Assembly (NCBI GenBank): GCA_008632985.1
Contig: QPGO01000005.1
Location: 372,001-436,000 of the forward strand
DNA length: 64,000 nucleotides
Source of the DNA: Psammoneis japonica
Lineage: Eukaryota
Direction of reading: 5' to 3'
The translations under genes and the position numbers were made by a program. How positions within the stretch are numbered: position 1 is the stretch's first letter; each line of letters opens with the position of its first letter. Below the pieces are notes generated by a model. That model saw only the letters and a program-made list of their open reading frames with translations, was not told the DNA's origin and searched no databases. Below are positions 20,920-43,762 of this stretch, one piece after another.

Positions 20920-21682
20920 TCACGTATTCAGCTGGGGCAAGTCAGACAAAGTCTTGGCTTGACCCGGCCTCATTGATCTCTTACCCCTGCGTCCGCCGCT
21001 TGGGCCTGATTTCTTTGCCTTTTCTTCCAAGGCCGAACGCAACTCCTGTGATTCATCCTTATTCTGTATAGCAGCAAAAGTAAGTTCAAGAAACGTTCAG
21101 ATATCATATAAGCAGTGCAATTTCGGTTTTTATTCATATGTGGAAAGCGGCATCAGCAACGAAACACCGCGTGCGGAGCTTGGGTACGATTATACTGAAA
21201 CATACCTCTTTCAAGTAATCCAAATTGAAGAGAGATCCAAAGTACCCCTTTGTCATTGCAATCAGTGTGAAGGGATTCAAAGATGCGCGAATGATGTAAG
21301 GAACACGAAGCAGTTTTAGAATGCTCGTGTTGCTCTTCTTTTCGTTTTTGATAATTTCACATTGACGGCTTCTTTCGCTTTGGAAGTCTTTTTCGCTCTC
21401 GCTTTCTGGCTCGCCTTTATCGCAGACGCCGCCAATTTTTCTTCTTCTCGTCCTCCTCTTCTTCATAATCATATTCATCATCGTATTCTTCCTCTTCGCC
21501 AAGAACATCCGCAGAGCCACCACGAAGAAAAACCCAAGAAGGAGAGTTCCGTACAAACGCGACATTACGAAATTGGGCAGAAGATGATTTATTACGACTC
21601 CTCCAAAGTCCGCCTCTGCGATGATAAGAATGATCGCCGCCACCAATGCAGCGAAGCCCGGTATACATCGTTGACCCGTCAT
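20920..21682 (-). CDS. Conserved-looking signal-peptide protein (LRGG motif, acidic tract, C-terminal KTLSDLPQLN); three 1-bp frameshifts in exon 1 as assembled
   Basis: MTGQRCIPGFAALVAAIILIIAEA..., FLRGGSADVLGEEEEYDDEYDY, KLAASAIKASQKARAKK and RVPYIIRASLNPF lie in successive frames. Intron 21064-21205; stop at 20920. Confidence 0.65.
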
Positions 21683-21997
21683 GGTCAATCGAGAATTCAC
21701 TGTTCACTGTGGTCAAGGGTCAGAGGTCAGAAGTTGGAAGTCGCATCGCACGTTGCGCGCCTCGTGGAACTTTTGCATGCGAGTGCGCGACATTTTTTTG
21801 CGTTTTCTACGGTTACGGTAAAATGTACGTAGGAATTAGTAATAATTTGGAAAGTACCGAGTTCCCACGAATCTTTCACATACGAAATCATGGTAGTAAT
21901 TCTACGAATATACACAAAAAAAATGACAGTGATTGAGAAATTTAGCAACGGTCACGACACAAACAAAATCCGAAAATTCGCGCTCGTTTTTCGCTCA

Positions 21998-22292
21998 CAA
22001 CTGTCGTCTCGCACCATGTGTTTGTTGTTTGCCAAGCCAGAAGCCGTAATCTCCGAGGATGGCTCGCCCTTCCTCTGGATTGAGAGCTCGCTCTTGTTTG
22101 GCATTCCACAACTCATTTTGCTTGATGGTGCGTTGTCTCTCTTTTTCAACTCGTCGTCTCGCACGATGTGTTTGTTGTTCGCCAAGCCGGGGTGCCGCAA
22201 TGCCCAAGGATGGCTCGCCCTTCCTCTGGCTCTAATTGCCTGCTCTTGTTTGGTGTTCCACAACTCATTTTGCTTGATGGTGTGTTGTCTCA
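21998..22292. repeat. Tandem duplication, two copies of about 150 bp
   Basis: gtcgtctcgcac(c/g)atgtgtttgttgtt(t/c)gccaagcc...ggatggctcgcccttcctctgg...ttccacaactcattttgcttgatggtg at about 21998 and 22147. Confidence 0.9.
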
Positions 22293-22829
22293 AATGGCAG
22301 CGCAGGTGTTGCCAGCCAAGTCCGGAGGTCGGGGCAAATCGAATGCGTGTCTCCGGCCTTGAGTCCATGTCACTCTCGTGTCTTTGACCGCAGGAAGTTG
22401 CCTGTTCACTTGACCCGTCAGGTCACGGTTGTTGAAACAGACAGCAGCGTTCATCTGCGAAGCAGCAAGAGCTCGCCAAGCAGATCATGCCATTGACGGA
22501 ACGCGGGTTTGGGGTTCCGTCGCATCAGCATGACATGATGCGGCAAGTCTTCACTCGCAGGGAGTGTTGATTTAGAACGCGGTTGACTCGCAAGTTTTCT
22601 TGTTGTCTCCGTAGCACGTCCCCCCTTTTACATTCTTGTGTGTGACATTTTTCACTCTGAAGATGCGCAAAAGCTTGAGCTCCATCTTTTGATGGCGCTC
22701 TTGAGGCAACGTTGTCCTGCGCGACCGATTTCTGTCAACTTTTGACATTGACGTGTTTCAAACATTTGAAACACACTTTGAACCTTTGACACAGAAGCAG
22801 AAAGACTAAAAGCACCAGACAGCGTTCCT

Positions 22830-23110
22830 CATTTGCGTGCAAGTTGTTCCGCATGCAAGTCAATTGACTGTGATGACGGTCGCAGCGCTTGCATTGTTGT
22901 TGCGCAATTTGATGTCATCATTTCTGCATTTGCACCACACCGCTCTCTTTTTTCAGATGGGGTCCACGATGGGGTGTTTGTTGCAGTGTGCCCCAAGATG
23001 ACATTCAATGTGTGCTGGACCATTTCGTCACTGATCGCCTGCATGTTTTTAATGGATTCGTCGTGTTCTGCCAAACGGGCGGAGCAACAGAAGAATGTCA
23101 ATTCTAAAGT
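22830..23110 (-). mobile_element. Possible Mutator/MULE transposase remnant
   Basis: W...RERCG...MMTSNCATTMQALR resembles the MULE W...RYG...TSNxAExxN segment once Y->C is allowed. Short and degraded. Confidence 0.3.
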
Positions 23111-23429
23111 GGCTAGCTGGAACACTCTCCGAAAGGTTCTAAATTCGTGAGCTCATTTGTCTGACATTTGTCCTCTTTCTGAGGTGAAGAATCACCTGGC
23201 TGTGTGATGTTGTGTGCCTCCTTCAGCTGCACAACAAGTCTCCAATCAGATCCTCGAGCTTGTCTTCCAAGTTGGCCTTGAGCACGTCGACATGCACACG
23301 TCAGGGTCCACTGGAGGCTGTGAGATGAATGAAATTGATGACCGCATTGAATGTCGGGTTTTTCTTCATTCACAATCTTGAGGCCACAGACGATTCCTCG
23401 AGAGCGGTCTCTTGCTCCTTGCCATTGAC

Positions 23430-23900
23430 CTCCGTCAACGTGCAGTCCTCCCAAGGCAGGGATGCACAATTCCCAAGATGTTGGCCAAGAACAGCACAAA
23501 TTCAGATTTGGCAGCCATGCCCCCATCTGCACAAAGTTCTGAAACAGGAACTCCCGAGTCAGCGGCCGTGGTGCCACACACCTTGGAGCAATAAAATGCT
23601 GCCGCCTCTTTTGCTGCGCTTGCAACATTCGCCTTGGCATGACACCCGTGAGTCCAACAATCATTCCACGCGCACTCTCCTCCCATTGTGGAGCCAGCGA
23701 GCCAGCAAAGGCGGGGACAAACCACACCCCTCCATCGTCATTGGCTTAAGAAGCCAAATCTGCAATGTCTTTGGCGCTGTCACCGACCTGCAAGTTGTCG
23801 CGGAGCCATCCTACAATGGCCACAGAGCACCTCGAAGAGCAAAAATTGTTGGATCTGCCTTGATTTGGCAAAAAGGAGATGACAGGAGTCCACATTGTGA
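23430..23900 (-). pseudogene. Glycerol kinase (FGGY family) C-terminal fragment, frameshifted
   Basis: SVAIVGWLRDNLQV...DIADLA; WFVPAFAGSLAPQWEESARGMIVGLT; DSGVPVSELCADGGMAAKS...LANILG, spread over three frames. Confidence 0.85.
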
Positions 23901-26149
23901 AACATGAGGATTGTTCTGAGCACCCACATTCATCAAGAGAAAGGCCCCAGTTTGCATGCAATTCCAGAGACAGGACCAATCCTTCACTCAAATCATGCAT
24001 CCTTCAGCTCGCATGTGGTTGTCCAAACACACCCGAATCGGACGGTCGTTTGCGAATGTGCCCAATTGCAGAGCTTGCATCATTGCATGCATGGGAATGA
24101 GAACAGCAAAATTGAGCGTTTCGATGGCTTCGCCGACACAACAACAAGCCACGATTGTGCCGAGCACTGGATCTTCGCAAAAGAAATCGGCTTTGCCCAA
24201 CAAAGCCGCACCTGTGGATGAATCTTTCAGCAGGTCCAGCACATCCGAAGAAATTCAACTTCCTTGCTGCTTCAGAGGCAAATGACTCCAAGAATGGTGG
24301 TGCATGATTGTTTGCCGTCGGAATGATGTGACTCTGGAGAAAGCGATTGTCTTGGGACTCCATTCCCCACTCCCATTGTAAAGAGGTTTTGTTCTTTAAA
24401 TTCCCTTTCTTTCGATTGGGCATCTCTGTTATCGTCAATTCGTCAAAAATCAAGTCGAGCAGCAAAAAATCTAGAACCATGCGCTCAAGGATTGACGGGT
24501 TGCGTGTGTCGGCTAGAAAGGCTTGCCTGGCAAATCAACACGCGGCAGCTCTTCAATGTAGGCTAAAAGATTCACATGTCCCACTGCCGACGGGCACTCT
24601 GCTCTAACTCCCATAATCCATAAGAGCCGTAGACTGGATTGTCAATCAAGCTGTTGATGAACTGAAATGGAGTCTTCCAGACGTAGGCGAGACCAACAAG
24701 TGCATGGCAGGCTTTGATTTTCTCGGCGTTTCACCATACGATTCAGCCAAAATGTCAATTGATTTCTCTCTTCTACAGCTCGAAACGGCTCTTGCAGGCT
24801 GTGGCCATGGCATGTCACTGCAATGTCGATTTTAGTGAAGGAAGCACCTCGTGCCGTGGCCACGTTGAATGACATTCACGTTGGAACCAGGAAGAGCGAT
24901 GCCCGCTGAAAATTCATGAAACAAACGAGAAGCTGGTCGAATGTTTCGCTCCTCTCATGCATGCGCCAACAGTGGCAGCTTCCTCCTTGGGACGCAACAC
25001 GCAATTAGAAGGACATTCTTCTCCTGACGATGCAAGCAAGTTCAAGAATGTCTGCAGTGTCGCAATGAACAGGCTTGGGAAACAGCAGAGGCACTTGGTC
25101 TATCTGCATGGTGTTGTTGGCGATCATTTCAATCAACTCGGCAGCATTCAGCTGTCTTGGTGACTGCATTTACAACGGTGTCGTCTTTGTCATGTCTGAC
25201 ACCTCTCGATCAAAACACGCCCACGTCAGACAATTCAACAATGACAACGACAGGCACAGTCCATCCTGCTCCCGCCCACAAGAGCCGCGTTGACGATTTC
25301 GACACTTTGCCTCCCAGAGTTGGTCCTCTCCATGTTGCAAAATCTCTTCCTGCCAATCAACAGCGCTTTGTGCTTTGTGATTTACACCGGTGGGGCCCTC
25401 TGCTCTAGAGCTGGCTTGTAGAGAGCAGCAATTAGAGAGTCCATCTTGGGTCTCTGGTGTTGGACGGAAGAGGTGGGTCTGGGGAAAGGTGTGGCGGAAG
25501 AGTCGCGCGAAGTGTGCTGGGGGATGGAGAGAAAAAGGGTGGGCCGAGGGTGTGGACAGACGGTCGAGAGGAAGAGTTGGTGGGTGACAGTGGGATGGTG
25601 GAGGAGAAGGGCTTGATGCGCAGAAAGATGGGTGGAGAGGGCAAAGCGAAGTTGAGACTGAGGATTTGAGAGGCCCAGAGTGGAGGGGGGTTGAAGTTTG
25701 GCACGAGAAGCCGAAGCGGTCTTGAGAGAGCTGTTTCCACGCCACCACATTGGAGCTGGCAAGGAGGTCGGAGGGTGCAAGGAGTGAGTTGGTGAAGGCG
25801 GAGAAGGATCATGTTTGAGAGTTGGAAAAGGAAGAAGGACTTGTCCAGGGTGGTTCAGGAGGAAGGGGTGGGATGGAGGAGGGTGTTGTGGTGGAGGTGC
25901 CGAAAAAGAATGCGCGGAAATGGCAGCCGATCATGCCGCCACGGTGGTCGAAGACAAAAGGAAGAAGGAAGAGCCCGGCTTTGCTTCGGTCCCATTCATG
26001 AATCAATGCATCCAATCTTCCAATCTGATTTCCAAAAGCTCAAGCTGTGGTTGCACAGCACTGCGACAGTCGCCGTGGGTTTCTGCACACAAAACAGATG
26101 AAACCGTGAGCTGGGATTGCTCGCAAGACTCAGAGCATGAAGTTGTCCC

Positions 26150-29100
26150 AACACTTTTGAAAAAGGACCACAAATTCCCTCCAACCATGAGCATCACAAT
26201 TTGAGAATGACACCAAATTTGTGCGACAGCCTGCATGCATGCATCTGATGAAAAACATGCGGTGTCGCCATTGCAAAAAAAAGGGAGTCGTTGTTCGCTT
26301 CCTTCTCATGGCAAGTGGCACCTACGGCATCACTGCCAACTGCATTTGCTCCCTCTAGTTTGTCCCATCCACATTGCAAAGACACTGAGGATCTCACAAT
26401 GGTTGGCAAAGAATGCGTTGTTCAAGGTGACGAGGCACTGTCCAAAGATCTCAGGCGTGTGACGTTGACTGTTGATGAGTGCAACAAGAAAGCAGAAACT
26501 CGCGGCAGCTCCAGCAAGAGAACAGTGGGGTGTGACACAAATGAGCATGCACAGATGTGTTGCAGGAGAACGAGTGCAAGAAAAAGAAAAGGAAAAAACT
26601 GCTAGAGTCCTCAGCACAGCAGAGGAGAAATCATCCAATGATGGCAGTGCTGATGATGATGACACTCCTGACAATGATGCTGTGCCTTCCAATGATTTGA
26701 CCGCTGTTGTTGTCGCCTTCTGGGATGACACGTCCACATGGAACCTGTTCAATGCAGATGATGGAGAGGATGCAAAAAAGGCAATCAAGAAACAGACAGA
26801 TGAGTTGGCAGCTGGATTTTCTTTTCATGATGGATGGAAAGAAGTGATTGAAGGAGGTGATCCTGACAACCTGTGCACACCCAACAATGCTCATGTGATT
26901 CGATTGCAATGCCAGCATCTTGCAATCATGCTCAACTGTGCATTGAAGAAGCCACCAAAAAGGAACACTGCATGGCTTGACTGCTGTCAGCATGCAATTG
27001 ATGACCTCAATGGCACAGGTGTTAACTTTGTAAAAAGTCACCAAACCGCAGCTGCGTGGTGTTGCATCTTTAGAAATCTTAGTTCCTTTCCTCATCCCCA
27101 ACCAAAAGGAAAAGGTGACCCACCGACATTTGAAGCATGTCCAAAGATGAAGCGGAAATTCATTGAGTTTGTGACAGCAAACCTTTCTCGACTTTCTGCT
27201 GAGGTGGCCACAGATCACTTCCATGAAGTGCTTGTCCTGGAATTCTTAAAGAGAGAGAACAACAACCATCACAAGAATGGGGAAGACATCATGGAGTCAG
27301 AATGGCGGGAGTTCCTGTGAATCAGTGCAGATTGCTCACTGGGGAAAACCAACTGTGCACTTCTTCAGATGCAGTTTCCAACTGGATGAATCTGTTTGGT
27401 TTCCAGTGTGGGCCAAACAAAAAGATGCATGTGTTGATGATCATGAACATCCTGACAACATGAGGTGTGGAATGTGATGATCCATCAACATTTGATGAAA
27501 GAAGAACAAACCCTGTGTTGGATGTAACTTCCAAAAGCAACTGTCATGGTCCTTGTTGAAGCTGAAGCTCTCCCAGCAAAAATGGGGCATGAACACCAAG
27601 TCAATGGAGAAGATTTTATCGAGTGTCATGTCAATGCCATCGTTGACCTGGAAAGCATCATGCCCAAGCTGTCTGTGCAATTTCGTGGAAGTGAAAGTGT
27701 GAGAAAGGAGCCCAGTGTAAAGCCTCTCATGACATTTGGACAGGATGAGGCCATTTTTAAGCAATGCTTGCCAAGCACAAGCAGCTGGTTGGGTCCCAAA
27801 GGTGAGTGGCCACTGCTGCCCAAAGATGATGGAGAAGGCATGATGCAATCTCTGCTCCAATGTCACAAGGTTGGCCTCATTTGCAATGAAGACATTTTGG
27901 AAGAGCAGCTCAGAGAGACAAATGAAGCTGGAGCAGGCAAATGCCACACTGATGAAGATGCTGCAGAAGCAGTGTTCAACAAGAAGCAGCATGAGCCAAA
28001 GTTGAAGAAAAGTCCATTCCTCCACAAGTTTGAGCATGGAGCAAATGACGACAGATGCTGGAATTGCGATCACATGCTGGTGCGATTGGAGGATTGCAAT
28101 CTCATGCTGGTGCAATTGGAGGACTGCATGGATTGCTTGAAAGTGCTGTGTCACAATTTGTTGCCACTTCCTTTTTGATCATTCTTGCAGGCACAATGAG
28201 CAGAGAGTGGACAGACTGATCTGTGACAAGCACATGATGAATGCAGGAGTTGGCGGCAGTCAGAACAAGATGCACCCTTCTGGGATTCTTCAGGCAGAGG
28301 GTTTTCCAGGTTCTCATGCCAAAGCTGTTGGCATGTCATCTGCAGGACAAGTGCAAACAATGGCATTCAGTGAGGAAGACCAGGAGCCATGCTGGATGAT
28401 GCCAGAAGAATGAGAAGCAGAGAAATGTGACGCACCTGCAGAGAGACAAACTGAAACTTGGAAGTTCCTGTGTGATGAAATTTTTGACAAGCTTCTACAA
28501 AAGAACATCAAGAACGTCAGGGGTGAGAAAAAGGATGAGTTGATTGACACAGCAAAGAGCAGCAACACACCTGTCAAAGAAACCATTCAAAAGGCAAAGC
28601 ATGGATGGGCCGACAATCCAAAAGGATCAAAGCAAATTTTGCGTGAGCGAGGATGGATTGATCCCAACAACCCTGGAAAATGCACTGTGGATGGCACAAA
28701 GGGCAACAATGGAGAGATCGACAAGCCAACATCTCTCCTTCACTTGATGGCTGCTTGCAATGATTTTGTCAACAAAGAGACGTTGTTGCAAACGATGGGT
28801 CACAAAATGGGTGTGGCCATTGACAGAATGCCAAAGTGTCACCCAGAAATGGCTGGGGGGGCATTGAATGTTCTTGGGGACTTGCAAAGCAGTGTTGTCA
28901 TTTGAAACCTTTGTCAAGAAAGAGGGGAAAGCAAAATTTTAGAGAGTTGGCACAAGAGTCAATGTCATCAACTGCGCTCATGACTGACAGGGTGCGAAAG
29001 TTTTTGCAATGAGCACAATGACACATTTGTGCTTGCATGGTTCTTTCACACAACCTGATGTGTCTGAAGAGGTCAAGCATGGAGCCTTGTCTCCAGAGAC

Positions 29101-29200
29101 TGTTGAAAAGCTTGTCAAAGACTTCAAAATGCACCGCATTGTGATTGATTTTGACAAGGCTTTCATTGTGAGGAAACTTTTTGCAGGGTGAAAAGATGCT
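26150..29200 (+). mobile_element. Decayed DDE DNA transposon, IS630/Tc1-mariner-like transposase
   Basis: FGQDEAIFKQ (D1), FLFDHSCRH (D2, about 28167), KGSKQILRERGWID, and PKCHPEMAG preceding the catalytic E region. Many frameshifts and stops. TIRs not identified. Confidence 0.75.
28073..28127 (+). repeat. Short in-frame tandem duplication (about 30 bp) in the transposase
   Basis: catgctggtgcgattggaggattgc / catgctggtgcaattggaggactgc giving MLVRLEDC, MLVQLEDC. Confidence 0.85.
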
Positions 29201-29829
29201 TTTTTCTGGGAAATAAAACAATTTAGAAACTGGGTGCACCATGTTTACAATGTTGCTGGCAAATTTGCCATGGCTTTTTGCATGCAAAATAAATTTTCCT
29301 GCCAGCCATGCAGGACTGAGGCAATTGCACAATGAGCTGATGGATGGCAAGATGATTTGACTTTCTGATTTTTTTGTGCTGGAAATTTTGTGCGCGCTAC
29401 ATGCATCATCACTAAAAATCGGTGACATGATGGTGGCATGTTGTTGCAATGTTGGTCATGTCAGCCACATGTTCAAGAGTTTTTTGTCTTTATGGACATT
29501 CAGTTTGTCATGTTTGTGGATGTGTTCAGCCATGAAAGTCCCCGCCATGAACATCTGTTTGATGGAAAAACGTCGCACCAATGCCGAGCTCTGTTTTCGA
29601 CCTGTCACTGTCATGCACTCATCATTGAATGATTGAGACTTCATCTGGGGGACTTTCTTTACACATTTGTGCTTTAAACAGTGTTGTTGGTCATTGTGAC
29701 AAGTGCCCATTGCAAAGCTGTCCTGCAAGAGCTTCAGAAAAATGCCATCGTCATCATCGGCATCGACGGCAATTTGTCACGCAAATTGCAAAAAATGCAT
29801 GACTGTCATCTGTCCAACATTGCGCTGCT

Positions 29830-30070
29830 GTGTGCACATTGTGCGCACACCTTGGTGCAACATTTGGGTTGGTTGCAGGAAACGTAGTGTCGCCACTGCA
29901 AGAAAAAAAAGGCAGTCATTCCTTGCTTCCTTCTCATGGCAAGTGGCACCAAAGGTGTCACTGCCAACTGCATTCATTCCCTCCAGTTTGTCCCATTTGC
30001 ATTGCAAGACACTGAGGATGTCACAATGGTTGACAAAGAGCGCATTGTGCAAGGTGAAAAGGCACTGACC
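29830..30070 (+). repeat. Second partial copy of the 5' part of the DDE element (matches about 26200-26445)
   Basis: Shared gcttccttctcatggcaagtggcacc...tcactgccaactgcatt...agtttgtcccat...gacactgaggat(c/g)tcacaatggttg. Confidence 0.85.
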
Positions 30071-30469
30071 CAAGCAGATCAGAAAGATGATGCGGGTGAT
30101 TCTGGAGTTTCTGACATGAAGAAAAAGATGCAATGGCTCTCTGGTGCATTTGACAAGAAGAAAGAAGATGCTGCAGATCGTGCCCCTCAGCCTGCAAAGA
30201 AAGGGGAAGGCTCACTTGTCAGCTCATGCATGAAATGGCTTGACAAGACCAACAAAAAAAGGAGAAAGAAATGGCAACAAGTCCACAAGGAAAACCAACA
30301 GGGTTGCAACTTGTCAAGGATCAAATGAAGTGGCTCAATGAGACAAACAAGAAGGAGGAATCTCCCAGGAAAGGTGACTCTGTGAGGTTCAAATGAGTTC
30401 AATGCTTGCAAAAGATTGTGTGAAATGGCTGGATGAAGCAATCAAAACAAAACAAAACAAAACCTCTGT

Positions 30470-32900
30470 GTTTAAAGTGCTGCTGTGCTTCCACCCTGCA
30501 ACTCTGGCAACAAGCCAACCCACACCCCCAACACACTGATGTGTGGCAGGAGCATGTGGCAATCAGCCAGATTCAGCATCCCCCATGGGAGATGCCATGC
30601 CAAAGTGGCTGACGATGGTTCTTGTGCCTCTCTGGCAGCCAAACATTTGGCTTCTTTTGTGCTGGACTCAAACATGGGTTTGACCATGGCCAGCCAATTG
30701 CAAAGGCAGTGAGTGGAGTGCAGAAGATGTTCATCAACCAAGTCGAACAACTGCAATTGATCCTTTGCCAGGTGGCCACCCTTGCGCAAATGTGTTGCTT
30801 TCACCTCTGCTTCTGCATTGTGATGTTGCAACAATTTTTCTGGTCTCTGAATCACAGCCATGTGCGGCATCATCATTGTGGTCATCCCACAGCTCCCGCC
30901 ATTGCTCCCATGTGTGATTGCCTGCTGTGGCAGCCCAATCCAGGCGTTGCTCTCATTCAGACAAACTCTGACATGTGCCGCTGGCCAGCAGACACAAAAA
31001 TTGAGTTTTGTTCCACAAAGTGGAGAGTCTGCCACTGAAAATTTGATGCCAACCAATGTCCTCTTGAGATCAGAAGACTGCTGCCATGCTGTGATGGAGG
31101 CCCTCTGCATGCAACATCTCATTTTGGAACCACGACTCAAGAGCGGTCAAGCGCAAGTCATGCAAGGATGGAGAAGCATTTGTGTCATCACATTTCTTGC
31201 AGAGTCTGAGTGAGAATGTCCTGCACCAAGCTTTGTTGTGAGGGCAATGGAGAATGTGATCTCCATCCTCCACAGGATGTTGACAATGCATGCAGCAGTC
31301 CAGACAGGTTGGGTTGTGTTGGTGAACTGTCTTGTTTGTTGGCAAGAGATCCTGAATCAACTTGACAGTGCTCACTTTCTGGTGGATTTTCCTTGACAAT
31401 GGCTTTGCGTGCACTTTCCAATTGATGGAGTTGTGTGCTGCATCCGTCCAACCATTCTTGTCCTTCATGTGGCTGACAAGAGCCAGGGCGGCTGGAAGCT
31501 TCAAATCAAAGAGTGGACTTAAAGTTTGATGATGCAGCGGAATCCTGAACAACCAAGTTTGCAAGACAATGAGGCATGCAAGGAGCCAGCAGAGTGTCAC
31601 CAGAACAGTGACCTTGGCATCAACCAGCCAGTTTGTCAGCCCACACTTTCAACTTGGCTGGCAATGACAGAGCATCATACAGAGTGTTGTCGTCCTGATG
31701 GCCTTTAACCCAGAAGACCTTTGCTTCAGTGCCAGAGCAATCATTGGCTGAGACACCCGAGATCTGCTCTAACAACAGGTGCATTTTGTGAAGAACATCC
31801 CATTCAGCGGCAAGAGAGTTTGCAGTGTGATGGCAGATGAAGCAATCTTGATTAGAGTCTGTCTCTTCCTCATTGGGAGGCAGCGGAGGTGTGGCTTGGA
31901 AATTGGACATGTTGCAGACCAAGGAGGAGTTGTTGCAGCACAGGTGCACTCCAAGACCAAAACCTCTGTGACAGCATTGCATCAGTCTGAAAAGAAAGCA
32001 AAGAACAGATGAGAGCCCATGTGCTTTGGCCCCATGTGATGAGGGACAAAAACTGAATGCTGGTCCAGCACAATCAACTGACAGTGTGCCATCCATGGAC
32101 AAGGTCCAGCCGAATGTGCCTTGAAATTCAACCACGGAACCGTCGCTTCCAACAGAGGCTCGGGAAGAGGCTGGTGGCTCAGCAATCTTGAAGACAGGTC
32201 AATGCACAGCAATGTCTTCAAACAACAGTGACTCCCAAGGTGGAAGGGCCTGTGGCATCGATGCAAACAACGTCGTGCATGCCTCATGGAACTTTGCCGC
32301 ATCTTGAGTCTGCCACTGTTGGGGAGCAGGGGGTGTGGTGAGGAGCAAACTGACTCTGCAGGGAGATGATCATGTGCTTGAGAATGGCAAAGACAAGACT
32401 TTCAGCTTTTCCAAGGGGACTCTGTTGGCAATTCATGGTCTAAACTGATGGGAGCAATTTGCAATGGAATGAAAACAAACAGCGCCACCAAATCATTGGT
32501 GCTGGGTCATGCCAGCTGCCAGCAGTGCTGCTGCTGTGCAGCAATTGGCACAAAGAAGAAGCTTGCGCAGCAGCCAACCCATGCTGGTTGCTTGCAACAA
32601 ACCTTGGACATCATTCAGTCATGCCTTGTGGCATGCTGGGAGCTGCTCTGCAGCAAAACACAGCATCTTTGGTTGACAGGGCCGCGCCAGTGCTTTCACC
32701 CAGAGCCCAGAGCAATGATGCTGCACACTTCTGGTTGCTGCCATTCTCCACATTCCACTGCACAGCAGGCAAAAAGTTGCTGCAGGTCAATCTCAATGAG
32801 GGACTCACTTGGCTGGAGGTGGTGGACTTGCAAAAACCAGTCAGTCTCTCGCTCTGACACACCACCTCCTGCTTTTTTGGCCCGTTGAGCCCATGGACCA
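30470..32900 (-). mobile_element. 5'-truncated non-LTR retrotransposon (diatom Ambal-like) remnant: RNase H and C-terminal Cys/His knuckle; RT domain not recognised
   Basis: SDGSVVEFQGTFGWTLS...CAGPA...SSHGAKAHGLSSVLCFL, LCCNNSSLV, FWVKGHQDD...ADKLA, KNGWT...INWKVH, CMHCQHPVEDGDHILHCP. (AAAAC)4 at about 30444-30463 marks the 3' junction. Confidence 0.8.
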
Positions 32901-34161
32901 CTTTGGCCTCTCAGGGGAAAGGAGGGCCATGTGAGAGTGTTGCAAACAAGCAGCACATGAGGTGGAGCTGAGACTCCAGAGACAACCATGAGATCCTGGC
33001 TGGCATCTCCCACTTGGCCAGCAACCATGCTGGCTGCCATGATCCTGAAATGTGACAGAGTTGTGGGCCCAGCATGGCCCTGCTTGCATCACAGCCAACA
33101 ACCTCCCAAGGTGCAGCACATCCTGCTGCCACACCATTTTTCCATGCAAATGTGGTGACACAGCCACACCCCAGTGGCGTGAGAGTGTTGAAACACAAGC
33201 AAGCACCAGTCAAATGGAGTGGCAGCAGTGTGACAAGTGTGCCATCAGCAGGTGGAAGAAAAGCCCAAAGTTGTCTGCAAAAAGAAGGAAACAAAACAAC
33301 ACACAAAGCAACAATGAGGAACCATGCCCACATTTTTTGCCCACTGCTTGCAAATGACTTGTGCAACATTGACCTTCGTCCTCTTAGATTGCTTTGGATT
33401 TCTCAGAAAGACTTGGATGGCAAGATGAGGTTGTTTTTGCTCTTCCCTTGAACCTTCACCAGATGGCTTGGTCCTTTTCTTTGGAAGGCTCTTGGCATCA
33501 AACTGTCCAGGAAAGCAAAGAGAAGAGATCGTTGTAGACACACAAGTGGCTGTCACCTGAAGGAGGCATGCTGAAAGAAAAAAAGCAGCACTCAGGGTTT
33601 TTGTCTGGAAAAGCACAGCTGCTCTTTTGTTCACAATTAAAATTTGATCAATGAGAAGCCTGTGTTCTTGTCAAGTGGGAGTGCTCATTCATTGTGAACA
33701 AATTGACTGTGACAATCAACCAAATTGGCAAAGTGGGAAACAAGACTTGAGGAAATTTGGCCTCACAGCACATGGCTCTTGACAAGATCTGTTTTGAACT
33801 CAACCACAGCGCAACAATTGTGGACAATTGAGCATCAATTGTCAACTGAGTTGGTGAAGCAGGAAACCACAATGAGTTAAAAATGGTTAATTTCTGTGCA
33901 CAAACACCCAGGTTGATCCAATTGGTTGTTGTTGTTTGCTGGCTCTAGCTTGCCAACATTTTGAGTTGTTTGTTTGTTGACCAGAGTGCATTTTGCAACT
34001 TTGGTTTCTGACAATGTTTGCTTTCTGCCCTTGTGCAATGTTTGACATTTGGCACATGCTCTCATTCTTCTGTGCTGTTGCCTTTGCTCCTCCCTCTGTT
34101 TTCCAAGCTGCTGCCCCATTGTCTGTCCCATCATTGTCTCTTGCAGTCTGTCTTGCATCTT

Positions 34162-34376
34162 GGGCCTGTTCCAGCTCCAGGTGCTCCGCGCGGGTTCGAT
34201 TCCCATCATTTGGAAATTTGTGCATTCAGCGCAACACTTTGCGTGTGTTTTCGGGTGTACACTCACCTTTCGATTTTCGAAACGATCAAAATTGAAGGAG
34301 TTAATTGCGCTAAACTGCACAGAAAATTGGCCTCTCGCGTGATGAAAAGCAGAGCACCTGGAGCTGGAACAGGCCC
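34162..34376. mobile_element. 215-bp MITE with perfect 25-bp terminal inverted repeats (PIF/Harbinger-Tourist-like ends)
   Basis: 34162-34186 gggcctgttccagctccaggtgctc is the exact reverse complement of 34352-34376 gagcacctggagctggaacaggccc. TSD not cleanly resolved. Confidence 0.8.
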
Positions 34377-35199
34377 TTGGTGTCCTTGGTTGTGTCGGCA
34401 TCACATCATGCTCCAATCTTTTGTGTGTTTCAAAGAGAGTCATTTTTGTGACAGCTTTTCATTGTGAGGTGTGAAAGCAAAATCCCTGGCAAAAAACAGC
34501 AGTGAAGTTGTCAGTTTGGCACAATTTCTTTGGCAATTGTGGCACAATCTGCTGATTCTGTTCATCTGTGTGCAATGTTGTGGCACATTGTTTCACATCC
34601 TTGGCAGTTTTTGTCAACTTGTCTGAGTTTCGAGAAATGACAAAAAGCACCAAATGAAAGCATCAGCTTGCTGTTGTTTGCTGCAAGCTGTCTGCTTCCA
34701 TGTCACACTTCTGACCTTTTGCCTTTCCCATGGCATTTTTTGTTGGCATGTGCAAAGCCCTGGGTGTTGTTGGTGCCTTCTTGCAATGTCATCATTGCTT
34801 GTGTGCTGCTTGTGTGCACCCTGTGTTTTTGTGTTTTTTTGTGGTGGTGATCATGTGCCTTTTTGCCATGGAGCCAAGCCAGTCAGCCTGACAATCATTG
34901 TCTGTGTCATCATTTTGCAAGTTGTCATTCACAAAAAAAAGCCTTTTGTTGCAGCCAATTTTGAAGTTCACAGGTTGTTTGAATCAACTTAGATGAACCA
35001 CTTTGTTGGTTTTCATTGCTTTGCTGTTTTGGTTGTGGCTGTGAGTTCTCATTTGTTTGGCAGCTCGTGGATGTTGAACATTGCACCTCAATCAAATGAA
35101 GTGCATCTGTTTTCAAAGAAGATTTGTGTCTCAGTTTTCACAACCTCAACCAGCTCTTGTTGAGAATGAAATTTTCGCATTCATGCCAGTCTGCACAGC

Positions 35200-36630
35200 T
35201 TGTTTGTTCATTTGTTTGGGGGTGCTGTTGCAGCTGATCTTTGCAACTGGCCAATCCACACATGTGCAACAAAACAATCCCACAGGGCTGCAGAGAGGAA
35301 CAAGAGCAACAGCCCCCAGAGACATGGTGCACTGCAGCTGCAGCGCCTCCTGTCAATGCCAGCCCTCCCTGACAACTTGTGGCCCATGCCAGTGTGATCT
35401 CCAGCAGGTCAGTTCAGACTTGAGCTTCCCAGCTTCAGAGCAAAGTGGTGGCCCCATGATGGCACCAACCAACCCAACAAGCAACAGCAGACTGAGGGTG
35501 CTGGTGGTCTCCAGTGGACCCCCTGCAATGCTCCAAGAATTGTGGTTGAGTGTTGAGGACAAGCAGCGCAAGAAGGCTGGTGTTGTGCACTTGTGGCACC
35601 CTTCACATCCCCTCCCACCAGTGAGAAATGCACACTTCACAAGTCCCAACTCCAGCACAACAAGATCCCATGATGGCATCAGCCAACCTGACAAGAACTG
35701 CAAGCCGAGGGCACTGGCAGTGTCTGGTGTGGACCACAGGCAACACTTTGAGAACTGTGGCTGAACATTGCAAGGTTGATCTTCTTGTGGCATTGTGGCA
35801 CCATGCTGTCATCTTGTCCCCAACAGCAGAGTGCATGACTTTCCAAACTCTGCAGTGCAGGGATCCCATGACGGTGCCAGCCAACCTGACAACTGCAAAC
35901 TGAGGGCATTGGCATCTCTGGCAGATCCCAGGTGACACTTCAAGAGCTGTGGCTGGACATTGCAAGGTTGATGTTGTGGTGTTGAGTTCCATGTCCCATT
36001 GTCCCCACCCAACAGGGGCAGATTTGTGCCTCCAAACTCCAGAGTGAAAAGACCCCGTGACAGCACCAGCTGACCTGACAACAGCAAGCCAAGTGCATTT
36101 GTGATCTCTGGTGGACCCTGGGTGACCCTTTGAGCACTGCAGTTGGACATGCTTGAAAGGTTGATGTTGTGGTGTTCCATGTCACCTTGTCCCCCCCCCG
36201 ACATGAGCAGACCACTTGAACCCCCAAACTCCAGGATGAAGTGACCCCATGACAGTGCCAACCAACCTGACAACAGCAAGCTGAGGACACACTGGCAGTC
36301 TTTGGGGGGCTCAGGTGCAACTTTAAGAACTGTGGCTGAGCATTGCAAGGTCAATCTTGTGGCGCTGTGCTCCCATGTCATGTTGTGCTCAACAGCAGCA
36401 GACTGACTTTCCCAAATCCAGAGTCATGTGCAGCAATCCCATGATGGTGCTGCCAACCAACTCATCAACTTCTGGCAGAGGATGCTGGTGGTCTCTGGCA
36501 GGCCACAGGCAACACTTTGAAAATTGCGGCCAGGTGCTGACTGCAAGGGAGGTCAATCTTGTGGTGTTGTGGCCCCATGTCACCTTGTGTTCCCAACAGG
36601 AGCAGAGCTGAACTTCCAAACTCCAGAGTT
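35200..36630 (+). pseudogene. Decayed gene for a secreted-type protein with six tandem repeats of about 190-215 bp (about 64 aa)
   Basis: Units begin ccc(a/g)tga(t/c)(g/a)g..cc at about 35452, 35667, 35865, 36055, 36246, 36438 and read roughly PHDGxxQPDNSK.R.L.VSG...F(E/K)NCG..CKV. Upstream hydrophobic LFICLGVLLQLIFATG. Confidence 0.6.
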
Positions 36631-37939
36631 GCTTGTTCACAAAGGTTTTGATTGCTGAATGGCAGCGGGTGAGCAAAACTTCAAAAAACAAGGTGCTGGA
36701 AATGCCAGAAACATGGAGTTGTTTTGAAGTGGAAAATGGCTTGAGGGGAGAGTGGAGAAATCTGCATCAGCATTTTTGAAACAAGCTTGTCTTTGTTCAA
36801 AGCTGGCATGTTTCTTGCAGAGCAACAAAGAAGAGCTGCGCACACTGCACACAATTTGGTGTCTTCACTGGCAGAAATCCACTGCCACAGCTGAGACAAA
36901 GTGCAATGTGCAAGCAGCATGGACCAAAACAAAAACACAAGATCAAAATCACAAACATGTTGGCCCCAATGACTTGGCACCCCAAAAAGTGTTTGCATTG
37001 GCTTGTTGTCTGTTTGAAGGTTCAAAGTGGTGCTGAACAAAGCACAGATTGACCCACACTGTGAACTTTGTTGTGATGTTGGAATGCACCAAATTGTGGT
37101 GTGATGATGATGAGGCTGAGTTGGTTGATGAGCACTGGCAGCAAAACAGGAAGTGTGAAGGATGACAGGGATTGAATGATGACATGGACATTGTGGGGAA
37201 TGCTTGACATTGCTCATTGGGTCTGTGGGCAGAAGGAAAGGACTCAACTTTGCAGCTGTGTTGTCTGTCAAAAGGGGGCAGTTCAAGAACAAGAAGTTCA
37301 TTTTGAAAGGAAAGCCTTTTCATTGCTGTCAGATGTGATGAGGGCACAGTGAATTGTGACAGAGGTGTGCTGCCATTGTGCAAATGACAGATTGGCAGCT
37401 GAGTTGTGTGGTGCTTGATGCAACAAACAGACAAATGCACCAGCAGAAACACTGAAAAAATGCAATGGACAATCAAGCTGAAGCCCTGAAAAATGCATCA
37501 GCTCTGAACAAGATGCCAGGCTACAAAACAAAACATTGCAAATCTGTGACTGTTGGAAAAGTCAGCTGTCAACCTCAAATGACAACTTTGGCAATGCCAG
37601 ATTTGTGGCTAAAAATGAGCAAGTGTGAGAACATCATCCAGCAGCACAGCTGCAGTGACCACATTGGTTGACCTTGAAAAAATCATGACACCTGTGACCC
37701 TGTGGAGAGTGTGATCACAGGTTAAATTTTTTTGACTCTTGTTGATGGATCTTCTTGTTCAGAGCAAAAAGATGTCACAGATGTTTCCAAAGGGAAGGAC
37801 ATGCAACAACACGCACCAAGACTCAAACTGGCTTCAACTCCAGAATCTTGCTGCCAGCTGTGCCACAGTTCTCTCCCCCCCAGTCTTTTCCTGTCTTCCC
37901 AGCACAGTTTGATGATGCACATGCCACCCTGAGTTGCTC

Positions 37940-38630
37940 ACACCCTTGATTGTCTCAGAGTGGTCTCATGGTTGGCTCTCAGCACAGTGCAGTGCACTTG
38001 GTCAATGCCTTCATCTCATTTTGCTTTCCTTCAGCATTTGACAATGTGGTCTCTGTTTCTTCATCTGGCGGGCACAGCCAAGCCCAAGTTGTTGAATCAT
38101 CAACAGCAGAAACATCTCAGAGCACCCCAGGTAAATGTTGAGATGTGCTTTGCAAAAATGCACTTTTTGTCAAACTCATTTGTTTGGGTTATTTCCTGCA
38201 GCAGCAAAGTGGCTTCTTGCTCTGTTGCAACAAGTGTGGCACCATCAAATCATGGGAGCTGTGGCAGCACACACAATCTGGTGACCCCGCATCCTCATTT
38301 GGCATGTCTCTGCCAATCAGCTGGGTTGGGTTCACTGTTTCTTGTTCCAAGTCATCAGATGTGGTGGGTGGAGGAGCTGTGATCAAATGTGCTCTGCTCA
38401 GAGAAAAGTGCGCAGAGTTGACATGCCTGTCTGCTGCACCAAGCCAAGCACCACAAGAAACTTTGGGGTTGGAGTTGATCATGTCTGAGCCCAGCTACAA
38501 AGATTTTTCTTCATGATCTTCTGGCAACAGCAGTGTGATTGTTGGGACATTGTGCAGGTGCAACCCAATGTGGGACAGTGTCCCTGAGAGAAAAACAATG
38601 CTGTTGGCACAATTGCAGCTGAGCAAATGA
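37940..38630. repeat. Partial copy of an unidentified repeat family, matching about 42640-43380
   Basis: Shared ttcatctggc...cacagccaagcccaagttg, ctgg(g/a)ttgggtt...ttcttgttccaag, ttggagttga...ctgagc, gcacaattgcagctgagcaa (also at about 41445). Confidence 0.75.
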
Positions 38631-39374
38631 TCTCACACACTTTCTGTGTAAAAAGATTTTGAGAGCCCAAGGAGAGGAGGTGTGGGAGACATGAGGGGCA
38701 GAGCAGATAAAGGCATTGAAGTGGCAACCAAAATGGAGGGGGGGTCAGGTGGAGCAGAGAGAGAAGGCAGCAGAGTTGTGCAGGAGAGAGAGGCAACAAA
38801 GGGCAGGTTTTGGCCACAGCAACCTTGGGGGCACCAAAAGAGTTCTCAAGGCAGTTGTCAACACACAGGAGAAAGTTGTCAAAGGCAAAAAGGGAGCTGG
38901 GAACTTGAAAGACAAAAGGGAGGGGAGGTTTGCCAGCAGCTGCATGGTCACAGAGGTGTGCATGAATGCAAAAGACAAGAGCTGGGGATGGCATGTGAAT
39001 TTGGGGATTCACGGTGCAGGCAAGTGCAGGAAAGGAAAGAACAACAGGTTGGAAGCAGCGCCAAGCTCATGGAGGAAGCCTCAGTCCTGTGAGGAGGGCA
39101 AACAAAGAATGGGAGCCTGGGGGGAGAGGGGCCAAAGGATTGAAGAGAAATTGGGCAAAACAGGGTGGCAGCAGAAGGGTTGCAAATGGAGGAAGAAGGG
39201 GAGCAGGAAGAAGGCTCAGGTGGAGACAGCAATTGGAGGAAGGGCAGTGTGATGCCAAGCAATGTCTCACAAGTCCATGCCAGAGAGAGACCAGCACAGC
39301 CAAGGCAGAGGCAGATGTGGTGACAAGTTTTGAGGACACCAGGTTTGAGCAGAGTCAAAGAGTGGGGTGCAGGA

Positions 39375-39860
39375 ATGTGCACGAATGATGCAAGGAGCAT
39401 GAAGCACTTTCAGAGTGCTCTTGCTGCTCTTCATTTTCTTCAACAATTTCACATTGATGGCTGCTTGTTTTGCTTTTGCAGTTTTTTTGCTCTTGCTTTC
39501 TGGGTGACCTTTGTTGCAGATGCTTCCAATTTTTCTTGTTCTTTGTCCTCCCCTTCTTTGCAGTCTTGTTCATCATCACATTCTTCCTCTTTGCCAAGCA
39601 CATCTGCAGAGCTGCCATGAAGAACAACCTGAGAAGGACAGTTCTGCATGAATGCAGAGCTGCAAAATTGGGGGCAGAAGGATGATTCACTGCATCATCC
39701 AACATCTGCCTCTGCCATCACAAGAATGATCGCACTGCCATGGTGGTGGTGAAGCCCAGCAAAATTCGTTGACCTGTCATGGTCAATTGACTGGTGGTGG
39801 TGTCACACAAAAGTCACAACACATTGCGCACCTTGTGGAACTTTGCCATGTGTTGTGTGT
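39375..39860 (-). pseudogene. Mutated copy of exon 1 plus upstream sequence of the 20920-21682 gene
   Basis: Colinear with about 21284-21790; LHGSSADVLGKEEECDDEQDC versus LRGGSADVLGEEEEYDDEYDY. Confidence 0.92.
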
Positions 39861-40399
39861 TGACTCTGTTTGCTGTTGAGGAGCTGGGGGGTGAGGACAA
39901 GAGCAAGCTGCAAAAAAGATGATGGGTTTGAGAAATGCAAGAACAACACTTTCAGCCATTCCAAGGAGAGGGTCATTTTTCAGAGTCTAACCCGGTGAGT
40001 GCAATTTTCAGTGGAATGAAAACCAAAAGCACCACATTGAACATCATCAGCCACTCAGCCCTTCCCTTGACAAACCTTGAAACATCATTCAGTCATGCGC
40101 CATGTTGCTGTGCTGAGAGAGTTGCTCCAAAGTGACAAAACATGACATCTTCAGTTGCTGGGGCCATGGCGTGCCTGTGGGCTTGTCCCAAAGCTGTTTT
40201 GTGGTTGTTGCACACATCATTGTCATCATCATCTGTGTGCCTTTTACACCTGCTGCAATGAGCACAGAGTTGCTGCAACCCAATCTTGAAGTTTTGGTTG
40301 ACTCGTCAAAGCGCATTTTTGAGAGACAAACAATGCATGTGGCCATGCAGAGTCTGCAAGCCACCTGCTTTTTGCTCATCATTTTCTTGAACTTTTGCT

Positions 40400-42480
40400 C
40401 ATGTGTGTGCACTTGCTCTTTTCTTGATGACAATCAACTGGCAAGAAAAAGACATGCCAAGACCACTTTGATCACAGGACATGAGGGTTGCATGGGTGCT
40501 GCAAACAAAACACACACATGCACACACAAAAGATCTCAGCCAGCATCCTCTGCTTTTGGTCAACAACCATGTGCTGGCCACCTTGACCCCAAAACATGAG
40601 ACAAACAAGTGAGTCCTCTTTGCCCTCACATCACCTTTCAAGGCATGCATCACCTGTCACTGCACCATTTTTCCACACAAGTGTGGCAACACACCACACC
40701 TCAGTGGCACAAGAAAGTTGCAATGCAAGCAAGAATCAAATGAGCAAAGTGGCAACAGCAGCATGCCAGGTGTGCACCATCAAGAACTCTGAAGAACAGA
40801 GTCCACAAAAAGTTGTGTTTGTGCAAAGAAGGAACAATGACACACAGAACAACAACGCAGCAAGGAGCCATGCACTGGCTGAAATGCATTGCATGTGGAT
40901 GACTTGTCACTTGCTTTTCATCCATGGGGCAAAGTCAAACTGAGCCACTGCCACTGCTGGCCTTTTCAGAAGAGAAGAAAACCCTGCCAAATTTTGAGGG
41001 TTTGCAGATTTGTGCCAGCACACCTGGAGAAAGCTGTTGTCATTTTCAAACCAGCCCCCAATCATTTTCTCTTTTGCTCTTCCCTCCTCAAACCTTTGCC
41101 AGATGACTTGGCCCTTTTCAGCAATCTCTCTCTTGGTGCCAAACAATTTTGGAGAGTGAGTGAGAGGTGCAGACAAGTCACCCAAAGAAAGTGTGCAGAA
41201 GGAAAGGTCCTCTTGGAGTTTTCACACATTTGCAGCTTTGCAATTTTGCCATGGAGCTTGTGTGCAGAATTCCATGTGCTGGCACCACATGCAGCCCCAC
41301 CCAGGGCACTGCACTCCATCTCAAGTGCCACAAGGAACTTAGGATTGGAGTTGACCTGAGCTCAGCTGCACAGACTTTTGTTCTTGTCTCCAGAAACTGG
41401 TGTGGCAGCATGGCTGGGATGTTGTGCTGTAAAAAAAAATGTTTGCACAATTGCAGCTGAGCAATGAACTCACCCGCTCATGCACAACGGAGCCAATTCA
41501 GAGTCTTCAAGCCACCCGCTTTTCACCCCCATCATGTTCTCAAACTTTTGTCTTGCACGTGTACTTGCTTTTCTTGGTGACAATCAGCTGGCAAAAAAAG
41601 ACATGCCAAAACCACTTTGGTCACAGGATGGGAGGGCCATGTGGGTGCTGCAAACAAAATGCACACACAAAAGATTGCAGCAAGCATCCTCTTCTTCTGG
41701 TCAATGACCATGCACTGGCTGCCTTGATCCCAAAGCATGAGAGACAAACCTGCAGATCCTTTTTGCCATCACATCACCACCTTTCAAGGTGTGCATGATC
41801 ACCTGCCACCACACCATTTTTCCATGCAAGTGTGTCAACACACCACACCTCAATGACACAAGAAAGTTGCGATGCAAGCAAGAATCAAACAAGTGGAGTG
41901 GCAGCACAAGCAGCACACCAGGTGTGTCACACCATCAACTCTGAAGAACAGCCCACAAAAGAAGTTGCTTGTGCAAAGAAGTGAGCAATGACACACAACA
42001 ACAACAACAACAACAGTGAGGAGCCATGTGCTCTGGCTGACATGTGTTTTGGCACATGGATGACTTGCCACAGTGCTCCACAAGTGGAGGGCTTGAGTTT
42101 CATCCATGGGGCCAAGTCAAACTGAGCCACTGCTGCTGGCTCAAAAGAGAAGAAGCCCTGCCAAATTTTGAGGGTTTGCAGATTTGTGCCAGCACACCTG
42201 AAGGAAGCTTTTCTCATTTTCAAGCCCCCCCCCCTCCCNNNNNNNNNNNNNNNNNNNNNNNNNNNNNNNNNNNNNNTGTTCTAAATTTCTCAGGCTTGGG
42301 TGGCAATGTGGGCTCTTTTGCTCTTCTGTCAAATGACCTTTGCCAGATGACTTGGTCCTTTTTTCACAGCAATGATCTCTCTGCTCTTGGTGTCAAACCA
42401 ACTTGGAGAGTGAAGAAGAGAAGCGCACAAGTTGCCCAAAGGAAGTGCACAGAAGGAAGGGTCCTCTTGGAGTTTTTCTG
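40400..42480. repeat. Diverged tandem copies (offset about 1.15-1.25 kb) of the unidentified repeat family; third fragment at about 33100-33350
   Basis: 45-bp identity 40982-41026 = 42156-42200; gacaatca(a/g)ctggcaa...aaagacatgccaa at about 40430 and 41580; caccatttttcca at about 33133, 40663, 41813. Confidence 0.85.
42239..42275. other. Assembly gap (N run)
   Basis: Run of n after a poly-C tract. Confidence 1.
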
Positions 42481-43762
42481 AAGTGAAGGACATGATGAGA
42501 GAATCAAACTGGGGACTCAGCCCCAGAATCTTCTTGCGCTGCTGCTGACACTGCACCCCTGAGTTCTCTCCTCCAAGAAAAACCATCTTCCCAGTGCTGC
42601 TTTGGCAGCGCATGTGCCATCTTGAGCTCATTCTTGATTCTTGCCTTGTTGTTGGTCTCATGGCTGGCTCAACGCAGTGTGCATTTTGGTTGATGCCATC
42701 TCATTGCACCCGCGCAATGCTTCCAGCAGTGCTTGACAACAGCTTCTTTTTTCATCTGGCAGACACAGCCAAGCCCAAGTTGCCAAATCTTTGGCTGCAG
42801 AGACAACTTCACAGAGGCCTCAAGCAAAAAATTTGAATGTGCGGCAGAAATGCACTCTGTGACAAACTTTTGTGTTTGAGCTTGTGCCACAAAGAGCAGC
42901 ACCAGGGAGCTTCTTCCTGATGCTGCGACAAATGTCTCTGAAAATGTGCTTGGGCAGGAGCTGTGTGCTGCGGTCATGGCACCCATGAACTGGCAACCCC
43001 ATCACTGTTTGTCTCTCCTGTCCATCACCTGGATTGGGTTTACTTCTTGTTCCAAGCCAACCAAATGTGTGGTGATTGAACATTTGCTTGTTGACGAAAA
43101 CAACAAGAGTGCAGCAGCAGACTCCCAGTGCTGTGCATTCTTGACATGTGGTGTGCCTCTCTGATTTGACATGCCTGTTGCTGCTGCACTGCATCTCAAG
43201 TGCCAAAAGGAACTTGGGTTTGGAGTTGAGCTGAGCTCAGCCACACAGATTTTTTTCTGATTGCCAAAAACTGGGCAGCAGTGTGGCTGGGATGTTTTGC
43301 GTGAGGTTGCACCAAGAACCACACCTCCAGCTGGTGCTGAGCAAAAAATGTTTGTGCACAATTGCAGCTGAGCAATGGGGACTCACCCGCTGATGGACAA
43401 CGGGGCCAATGATGAGAATGGCATGCCACAGCTGTGCGCAAGATGGACAACTTTTCTCAAGAGGACCAATGCCCAGTCCCCTTGGCGATTTCAAATCAGA
43501 AAAAAAAATGTTGAACGCATTGTGTCTGTTTTCTATGTTCATTCTTAAAAGCACTGATAAAATATGATTAGCATTGCATCTTTCCGTACAGTATTATCAT
43601 GATTGTGACAAATAACATTATTAGTTTTTTGATAGAATCATTAGTATTATTTTATTCGTAGGCGAGGCATAGGTGAATTGTGTCAAGCGCGACAGCGGCA
43701 TCTGGTCCGCGGCGGCTGGCCATCATGTTTTTGACCATGAAGGTGCGTGTCCCGCAACAACG

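Follow-up and report, generated by a model that had tools for sequence, protein, structure and literature searches.

In a 64,000-nucleotide stretch of the Psammoneis japonica genome (hereafter the window), a block of 21.6 kb is almost devoid of TpA, depleted in CpG and rich in CpA and TpG, and it holds a decayed copy of part of a gene that lies just outside it. The copy and the gene are homologous, the change between them ran from the state of the gene to that of the copy, it is specific to dinucleotide context, and it is sharply confined to the domain. Most probably, the inside copy is an old duplicate within a repeat-rich block, on which two context-specific transition processes acted in place. 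The features concerned are collected in Table 1.

Table 1. Positions in the window of the depleted domain, the gene pair and associated features
Feature	Position	Strand	Evidence or composition
Outside gene	20920..21700	-	ORF, homologues, tblastn, spliced read contig
Outside gene, exon 2	20920-21063	-	intact; homology to 20923, then stop
Outside gene, intron	21064-21205	-	GT..AG, minus strand
Outside gene, exon 1	21206-21682/21700	-	homologues, tblastn, contig joint
Outside homologous stretch	21261..21804	-	14 TA, 41 CG, rho TpA 0.37, rho CpG 1.40
TpA/CpG-depleted, CpA/TpG-rich domain, 21.6 kb	21919..43533		dinucleotide counts, read contigs
Left part of domain	21944..26300		TA 8.0/kb (rho 0.13), CG 46.6/kb (rho 0.73)
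Glycerol-kinase-like pseudogene fragment (FGGY_C)	23438..23737	-	Pfam E 5.8e-5; PDB glycerol kinase 2d4w_A E 6.6e-6
Patch of near-normal TA density in domain	24379..24833		15 TA/455 bp
Inside copy, decayed single-copy paralogue fragment	39348..39877	-	local alignment, BLAST, MAFFT, translation
Tandem repeat pair in domain (40345..42233)	40345-41059 + 41496-42233	+	BLAST, pairwise differences

The domain was delimited by its dinucleotide composition. Outside it, in its left part and in its right part, TA occurs 40.3, 8.0 and 3.3 times per kb, CG 56.7, 46.6 and 9.1 times (the fall in CG begins only at ~26300) and CA plus TG 137.5, 180.0 and 225.8 times; the sum of the pyrimidine-purine (YpR) steps is conserved throughout, at 234.5, 234.6 and 238.2 per kb, and the G+C content is 0.475 outside and 0.482 inside the domain. 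The conserved YpR sum and the near-equal G+C content fit changes made up purely of transitions, at TA and CG only. Expressed as rho, TpA, CpG and CpA+TpG stand at 0.064, 0.287 and 1.74 in the domain as against 0.586, 1.005 and 1.10 outside it, while the left part has a rho TpA of 0.13 and a rho CpA+TpG of 1.44. As TpA is gone from these left 4.4 kb while CpG is mostly kept, the two losses are separable and are read here as two processes. The longest TA-free run measures 285 bp outside the domain and reaches 1334 bp inside. The edges are sharp to ~100 bp, with TA density back at 43534, and both adjoin TA-rich, promoter-like DNA. Fifteen contigs break off at 21919, and these loose ends indicate that the left edge of the domain is a repeat terminus.

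The domain is a repeat mosaic with internal repeat families, and its single-copy-depth stretches, the gene copy among them, are as free of TA as the repeats are. The view of the domain as low-complexity DNA was rejected, as it contains only five short tandem arrays. Word depth runs into thousands (up to ~9,700, against ~60 for single-copy DNA) at 21564-22891, 30196-30859 and 34180-34843, and related copies of the first of these high-copy repeats, found in a transcript-like sequencing run (X2), still carry TA; the same run yielded no contig over 24220-40800, and no RNA data set is listed for the domain. Several local peculiarities were also recorded: the patch of near-normal TA density listed in Table 1, which may have been inserted later or have been protected; a strongly G-rich plus strand at 25501-26000 (216 G and 69 C in ~500 bases, with 49 TG and 21 CA); a run of 38 N at 42239-42276, inside the domain and between two repeat copies; and a three-copy repeat family (33111-33478, 40642-41118 and 41791-42362) whose members differ largely by CA/TG flips.

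When the whole domain was compared by BLAST with the 42.4 kb of its flanks, a single match was obtained, between 39378-39790 and 21284-21692 (74.3% over 416 columns, E 1.2e-74). An earlier examination of the sequence by itself, which we call the sequence-only reading, had proposed ~410 bp of homology between an inside and an outside copy; the homology is thus real, although its true extent is ~540 bp, as local alignment extends the match to 21261-21804 versus 39348-39877. The inside copy spans ~120 bp of 5' flank and the first ~140 codons of exon 1. Its 530 bp contain 0 TA and 4 CG, its reading frame is interrupted by frameshifts and one TGA, and it is enclosed by a TA-free run of 1280 bp (38708-39988). 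A read contig over 39182-40800 contains the whole of it at a depth of 63.5, equal to that of the flanks, with 4 differences. The outside copy lies ~220 bp from the domain edge and is of normal composition, the stretch 21261-21804 being composed as the flanks are.

Over the core of the alignment, TA falls from 14 in the outside gene to 0 in the inside copy and CG from 32 to 3, exactly the counts that the sequence-only reading had given, while CA rises from 26 to 43 and TG from 18 to 48, or from 44 to 91 for the two together. In the MAFFT alignment of this one gene pair, the 14 outside TA became 9 CA, 3 TG, 1 AT and 1 AA. The conversion therefore amounts to 12 of the 14 sites rather than 13, the thirteenth hinging on how the gapped stretch 21590-21596 is aligned. 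The fate of CG is similar in kind: among the 31 scorable core sites 3 were kept, 18 read TG and 5 CA, and among the 41 of the extended alignment 4 were kept, 23 read TG and 7 CA. All four CG that remain in the inside copy align with an outside CG, and in the alignment with the outside gene neither TA nor CG was newly created in the copy. The peptide replacements reported earlier (YDDEYDY to CDDEQDC, VPYII to APCII and LRGG to LHGS) are correct as well, except that they do not all belong to one outside frame; in the window's outside copy YDDEYDY and LRGG share a reading frame and VPYII lies in another. Transversions and indels also separate the two sequences. The remaining sites of the pair are ~13-16% diverged, which makes the copy old and is compatible with either a slow bias or a burst.

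The dependence on context was examined by counting changes in the gene pair. TA was retained at 0/14 sites, whereas the remaining 14 dinucleotides, with TA and CG set aside, were retained at 228/354 (Fisher p 8.7e-7). The T of TpA was changed by transition at 9/14 positions and other T at 5/107 (Fisher p 2.9e-7), and the same comparison for the C or G of CpG gave 25/62 against 9/124 (p 1.2e-7). On the plus strand, the A of TpA showed no such rise (3/14 versus 14/85, p 0.70). The Fisher test of TpA against other T/A contexts that had been proposed at the outset is thus positive for T and negative for A, and the TpA effect is strand-skewed. In the gene pair, the one 540-bp stretch from which all strand polarity figures derive, the pyrimidine side on the plus strand was altered in 9/12 converted TA and in 23/30 converted CG, equal ratios (Fisher p 1.0). 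If A and C were deaminated on one exposed strand, similar frequencies of change would be expected for the purine side of TA and the pyrimidine side of CG; the former was altered in only 3/12 (binomial p 2e-4 against this same-strand expectation). Judged from these counts, the polarity would fit lesions that strike the pyrimidine of one strand at TA and CG alike, or a pair of processes whose strand preferences are opposite. The equal ratio of ~3:1 (9:3 and 23:7), on the pyrimidine side of the same strand, suggests that one type of lesion or enzyme may act on both YpR steps.

Three lines of evidence (protein outgroups, discordances within a tandem repeat and paralogous contigs) agree that the inside copy is the derived one, as the sequence-only reading had maintained. 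The outgroup comparison was run at the protein level, where many TA sites fall at synonymous positions or in low-complexity stretches that do not align, and where the nearest homologues overlap the inside copy in only ~14 conserved codons; at all 8 informative codons the homologues carry the outside residue, and at none of the 8 the inside residue. The informative codon changes include TAC to TGC, CGT to CAT (twice) and TAT to CAA. The outside peptide SILKLLRVPYIIRA and its inside counterpart STLKVLHAPCIIRA differ at 5 positions, among them a Tyr (outside TAC, inside TGC) and an Arg (CGT versus CAT); the outside residue at these positions is found in 3, 2, 5, 4 and 8 of 8 homologues, respectively, and the inside residue in 0/8. 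In the LRGGS/acidic segment, the outside Arg and second Gly occur in 7/7 homologues and one Tyr in 2/7, whereas the inside His, Ser and Gln occur in 0/7. Similarly, homologue P0005 was aligned by tblastn with FVR and LRGG of the outside copy, whose counterparts in the inside copy are FMQ and LHGS.

The tandem repeat pair inside the domain was then compared copy against copy. The two copies differ by 80 transitions and 28 transversions, and 42 of the transitions pair up in 21 dinucleotides at which one copy has CA and the other TG. Any other kind of double transition occurs 1-3 times, and ~9 of all kinds would be expected under independence. Such CA/TG discordances are what is predicted if an ancestral TA or CG was resolved independently in each copy. 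The mutation came after the tandem duplication inside the domain, and since tandem copies arise in place, it happened in place. The paralogous read contigs point in the same direction. Among the 40 of 292 read-contig differences that were listed, 38 fall inside the domain; in 19 of these 38 the paralogous contig has TA (8) or CG (11) where the domain has CA or TG, 7 run in the opposite direction and 12 are of other kinds.

No intact gene was recognisable in the domain by Pfam searches of 81 frames of >=100 aa and 150 frames of 55-99 aa; the latter are 150 of 162 such frames, the 12 left-most being excluded, and 15 of the 81 long frames were re-searched at E<=5. Host-like gene fragments are present. 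Besides the glycerol-kinase-like fragment of Table 1, the long frames gave a weak polysaccharide-deacetylase match, for which no solved structure was matched, and a weak zf-RVT match at 31073-31648 on the minus strand; the 150 shorter ones yielded nothing. Apart from the zf-RVT match, no viral or transposon family was found at E<=0.005-0.01 among the 81 and 150 frames. The window itself is gene-dense eukaryotic DNA: two long open frames make up a topoisomerase II gene, and a SKIP/SNW gene and an EF-hand protein are also encoded. Among named taxa, raphid pennate diatoms (Cylindrotheca, Nitzschia, Bacillariaceae, Pseudo-nitzschia and Epithemia) supply the best relatives of the SKIP/SNW protein, at 65-75% identity, which points to a diatom as the source.

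The outside gene is expressed, and its transcript is spliced. In run X2, a contig of depth 90 connects 21063 with 21206 and leaves out 142 nt bounded by GT..AG on the minus strand, at exactly the position predicted from the homologues; this joint indicates that run X2 is transcriptome-like. The encoded protein is small, carries a signal peptide, acidic and Lys-rich tracts and a conserved C-terminal domain, and matched no Pfam family. Eight homologues from other organisms (P0002-P0009, one of them from a marine transcriptome collection) have in common with it the signal peptide, an R-G-G motif, the acidic and Lys-rich tracts and the C-terminal domain, which continues in exon 2. In this family the C-terminal domain closes with the conserved motif P-G-Q-A-K-T-L-S-D-L-P.

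The outside copy is not a faithful image of the ancestor in every respect. In the window, its homologue-like peptides from the N-terminal half are spread over three frames, with a frame of 188 codons still open, while in the inside copy the end of the signal peptide, LHGS and the acidic and Lys-rich tracts all lie in one frame; at least two indels leave the inside copy closer than the window's outside copy to a homologue-like reading frame. Over 21206-21707, contigs from runs X1 and X2 show 1-2 gaps each relative to the window and, in addition, two substitutions (21327 and 21346), and 21354-21495 is covered by a pair of transcript-like contigs, at comparable depths of 41 and 36.5, which may be two alleles. 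The frame changes over 21206-21707 may accordingly be assembly errors or indels, or allelic variants. In addition, 5-6 sites of the gene pair read CA outside and TG inside. These fit an ancestral CpG lost in both lineages, so that the outside copy is no pristine ancestor.

One alternative to mutation in place is that the pieces were mutated before their arrival, in a mobile or RNA-copy phase with A-to-I editing at UpA and deamination of the cDNA, so that the block would be an accumulation of edited elements, one of them carrying the gene fragment. The changes are indeed polar on the sense (minus) strand of the gene, with A to G at 9/12 converted TA and G to A at 23/30 CG; moreover, the domain is repeat-rich, its left edge is a repeat terminus, and it contains the weak zf-RVT match described above. 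However, the gene fragment, which takes in ~120 bp upstream of the start codon, is at single-copy depth, the tandem repeats, whose copies arise in place, went on to diverge through CA/TG changes once duplicated, and other copies of the left-edge repeat that are represented in transcripts retain TA. The loss of TA is also uniform across sequences of unrelated origin and in both orientations. We therefore consider mutation before arrival unlikely.

Selection, rather than mutation, might have purged TA and CG, through a nuclease, TA-targeting transposons or a structural role. TA and CG are the two self-complementary YpR steps, and palindromic words are typical nuclease targets, but ~800 TA and ~800 CG sites would each have had to be selected in non-coding, decaying DNA, in a block broken by frameshifts and without an intact gene. 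Furthermore, the replacements are almost exclusively single transitions that conserve the purine/pyrimidine pattern, and in Bigelowiella, as far as the preprint discussed below reports, direct mutation data show the TpA change to be a mutation bias; a selective origin is quite improbable. An artefact of sequencing or assembly, such as miscalls at modified bases, is less probable still. The assembly is imperfect, as the few indels between window and read contigs around ~21206-21707 indicate. On the other hand, contigs built from raw-read words of run X1 (91% of sampled words), which come from one study and possibly from the assembly's own data, match the domain at single-copy depth, and contigs at depths of 58-74 reproduce it with 0-6 differences per piece of 0.6-1.9 kb. 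Transversions and indels distinguish copy from gene as well, and genes in the block would have stayed recognisable if only ~10% of its bases had been miscalled. The least probable of these readings is the reverse direction, with CA/TG ancestral and TA and CG gained by the outside gene. At one codon homologue P0005 shares a Ser with the inside copy, against Asn in the outside copy; yet the homologues agree with the outside residue at all of the informative codons, and in composition the outside copy resembles the remainder of the flanks, which makes this direction very unlikely.

The explanation that we favour, two processes acting in place on an old duplicate, would run as follows. The promoter-proximal part of the gene at 20920-21700 (minus strand) would have been duplicated into the block at 21919-43533. 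There, a first process would have converted TpA into CpA or TpG, an A:T to G:C transition, and run to completion; its signature is that of the TpA-restricted hypermutation of Bigelowiella natans. A second process, from CpG to TpG or CpA, would be the usual decay that methylated CpG undergoes in silenced repeats, slower or later than the first. Both would turn self-complementary YpR steps into CA/TG, leaving the purine/pyrimidine pattern and the G+C content unchanged. The block is presumably silenced chromatin, and the loss of its CpG would be driven by methylation. The first process is probably enzymatic, and DNA adenine deamination by an ADAT2-like deaminase is a published proposal that may apply to it.

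For the chlorarachniophyte B. natans, the 2026 preprint by Mettrop et al. (bioRxiv 10.64898/2026.01.13.699255) reports that 231 of 302 nuclear point mutations in mutation-accumulation lines fell in two integrated viral regions, that 230 of these 231 de novo mutations were A to G or T to C, with all AT to GC changes at TpA, and that the rate there is ~6e-7 per site per generation. The DNA targeted there comes from integrated giant viruses and virophages; an ADAT2-like enzyme that deaminates adenine in DNA is proposed, and DNA deamination by ADAT2/ADAT3 in amphioxus and Trypanosoma is cited. The footprint cut-offs given in the same source (a rho of 0.43 for TpA and of 1.52 for CpA+TpG; bioRxiv 10.64898/2026.01.13.699255) are passed widely by the present domain (0.064 and 1.74). 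On that account of the system, the two cases are alike in that transitions at TpA (A to G or T to C) give TpG or CpA (here at 12/14 TA), in their regional confinement next to normal DNA (here 3-8 TA per kb inside and 40 outside), and in a long-term footprint of TpA loss, linear gain of CpA+TpG and kilobase clusters poor in annotatable genes. They differ in several ways. The host here is most likely a pennate diatom and not a rhizarian, and TpA depletion is far deeper, with a rho TpA of 0.06 as against 0.45 in the B. natans NCLDV region. As described in the preprint, the B. natans process has no CpG component and G:C to A:T changes are rare, whereas here CpG was lost (3/31 kept in the pair, domain rho 0.29). 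The B. natans targets are recognisably viral, while no viral gene is recognisable here and a host-derived gene fragment was hit. Finally, the B. natans signature comes from de novo mutations, and ours is read from a footprint in the sequence.

Other known systems share parts of this picture. Fungal RIP changes C to T, mostly at CpA, thereby creating TpA, and mutates both copies of a duplication. Like the process seen here, it is a local transition hypermutation of repeats that spills onto single-copy DNA (here within the block) and leaves a dinucleotide footprint; its product, however, is the exact opposite, as here TpA is lost and CpA/TpG are raised, and the outside copy was spared (14 TA, 41 CG, spliced). 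RIP was accordingly rejected, since TpA was lost rather than gained and only one copy of the pair was mutated. Diatoms methylate transposons. The decay of methylated CpG in silenced transposons (of vertebrates, plants and diatoms) resembles the present case in turning CpG into TpG or CpA in repeat-rich DNA and would account for the CpG half of the footprint, but it spares TpA, which here is gone in the left 4.4 kb, where most CpG has survived; diatom transposon methylation is treated in general terms in PMC9998398. The ADAR/APOBEC hypermutation of viruses and retroelements and DNA deamination by ADAT2/ADAT3 are likewise comparable in their deaminase-type transitions and in the preference for a 5' U or T before the edited A. 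ADAR and APOBEC, however, have as substrates the RNA or single-stranded cDNA of single elements, and here a contiguous chromosomal block was affected on both strands. In the literature surveyed, no report of TpA loss in diatoms was found, and TpA hypermutation appeared only in the Bigelowiella preprint.

To judge from its footprint, the domain would thus represent a second lineage, and probably the first diatom case, of a regional hypermutation that has been described once, with a more complete end state. If this second, unrelated lineage is real, TpA hypermutation is no Bigelowiella curiosity; in the end state seen here, TpA is essentially extinct over 21.6 kb. The gene pair serves as a natural experiment, in which the same sequence was destroyed in the block and spared just outside, an argument for targeting by location or chromatin state and not by the origin of a sequence. 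A wider scenario, which we put forward only tentatively and hold to be doubtful as a whole, is that of a TpA-directed DNA editing aimed by chromosomal position (a silenced block) and not by foreign origin, common to diatoms and chlorarachniophytes and so old within SAR, able to reach TpA extinction, and perhaps employing one type of lesion or enzyme on the pyrimidine of both YpR steps, rather than adenine deamination and a separate cytosine deamination. Targeting by position is suggested by the erasure of a host gene fragment inside the block while its expressed parent, 220 bp outside, was spared. Two tests that emerge from the analysis, a conserved YpR total and CA/TG discordance between repeats, are usable on any genome; they would find such regions and show whether a composition was inherited or produced by mutation in place. 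An enzyme behind the process, should there be one, would represent a natural editor of chromosomal A:T pairs.
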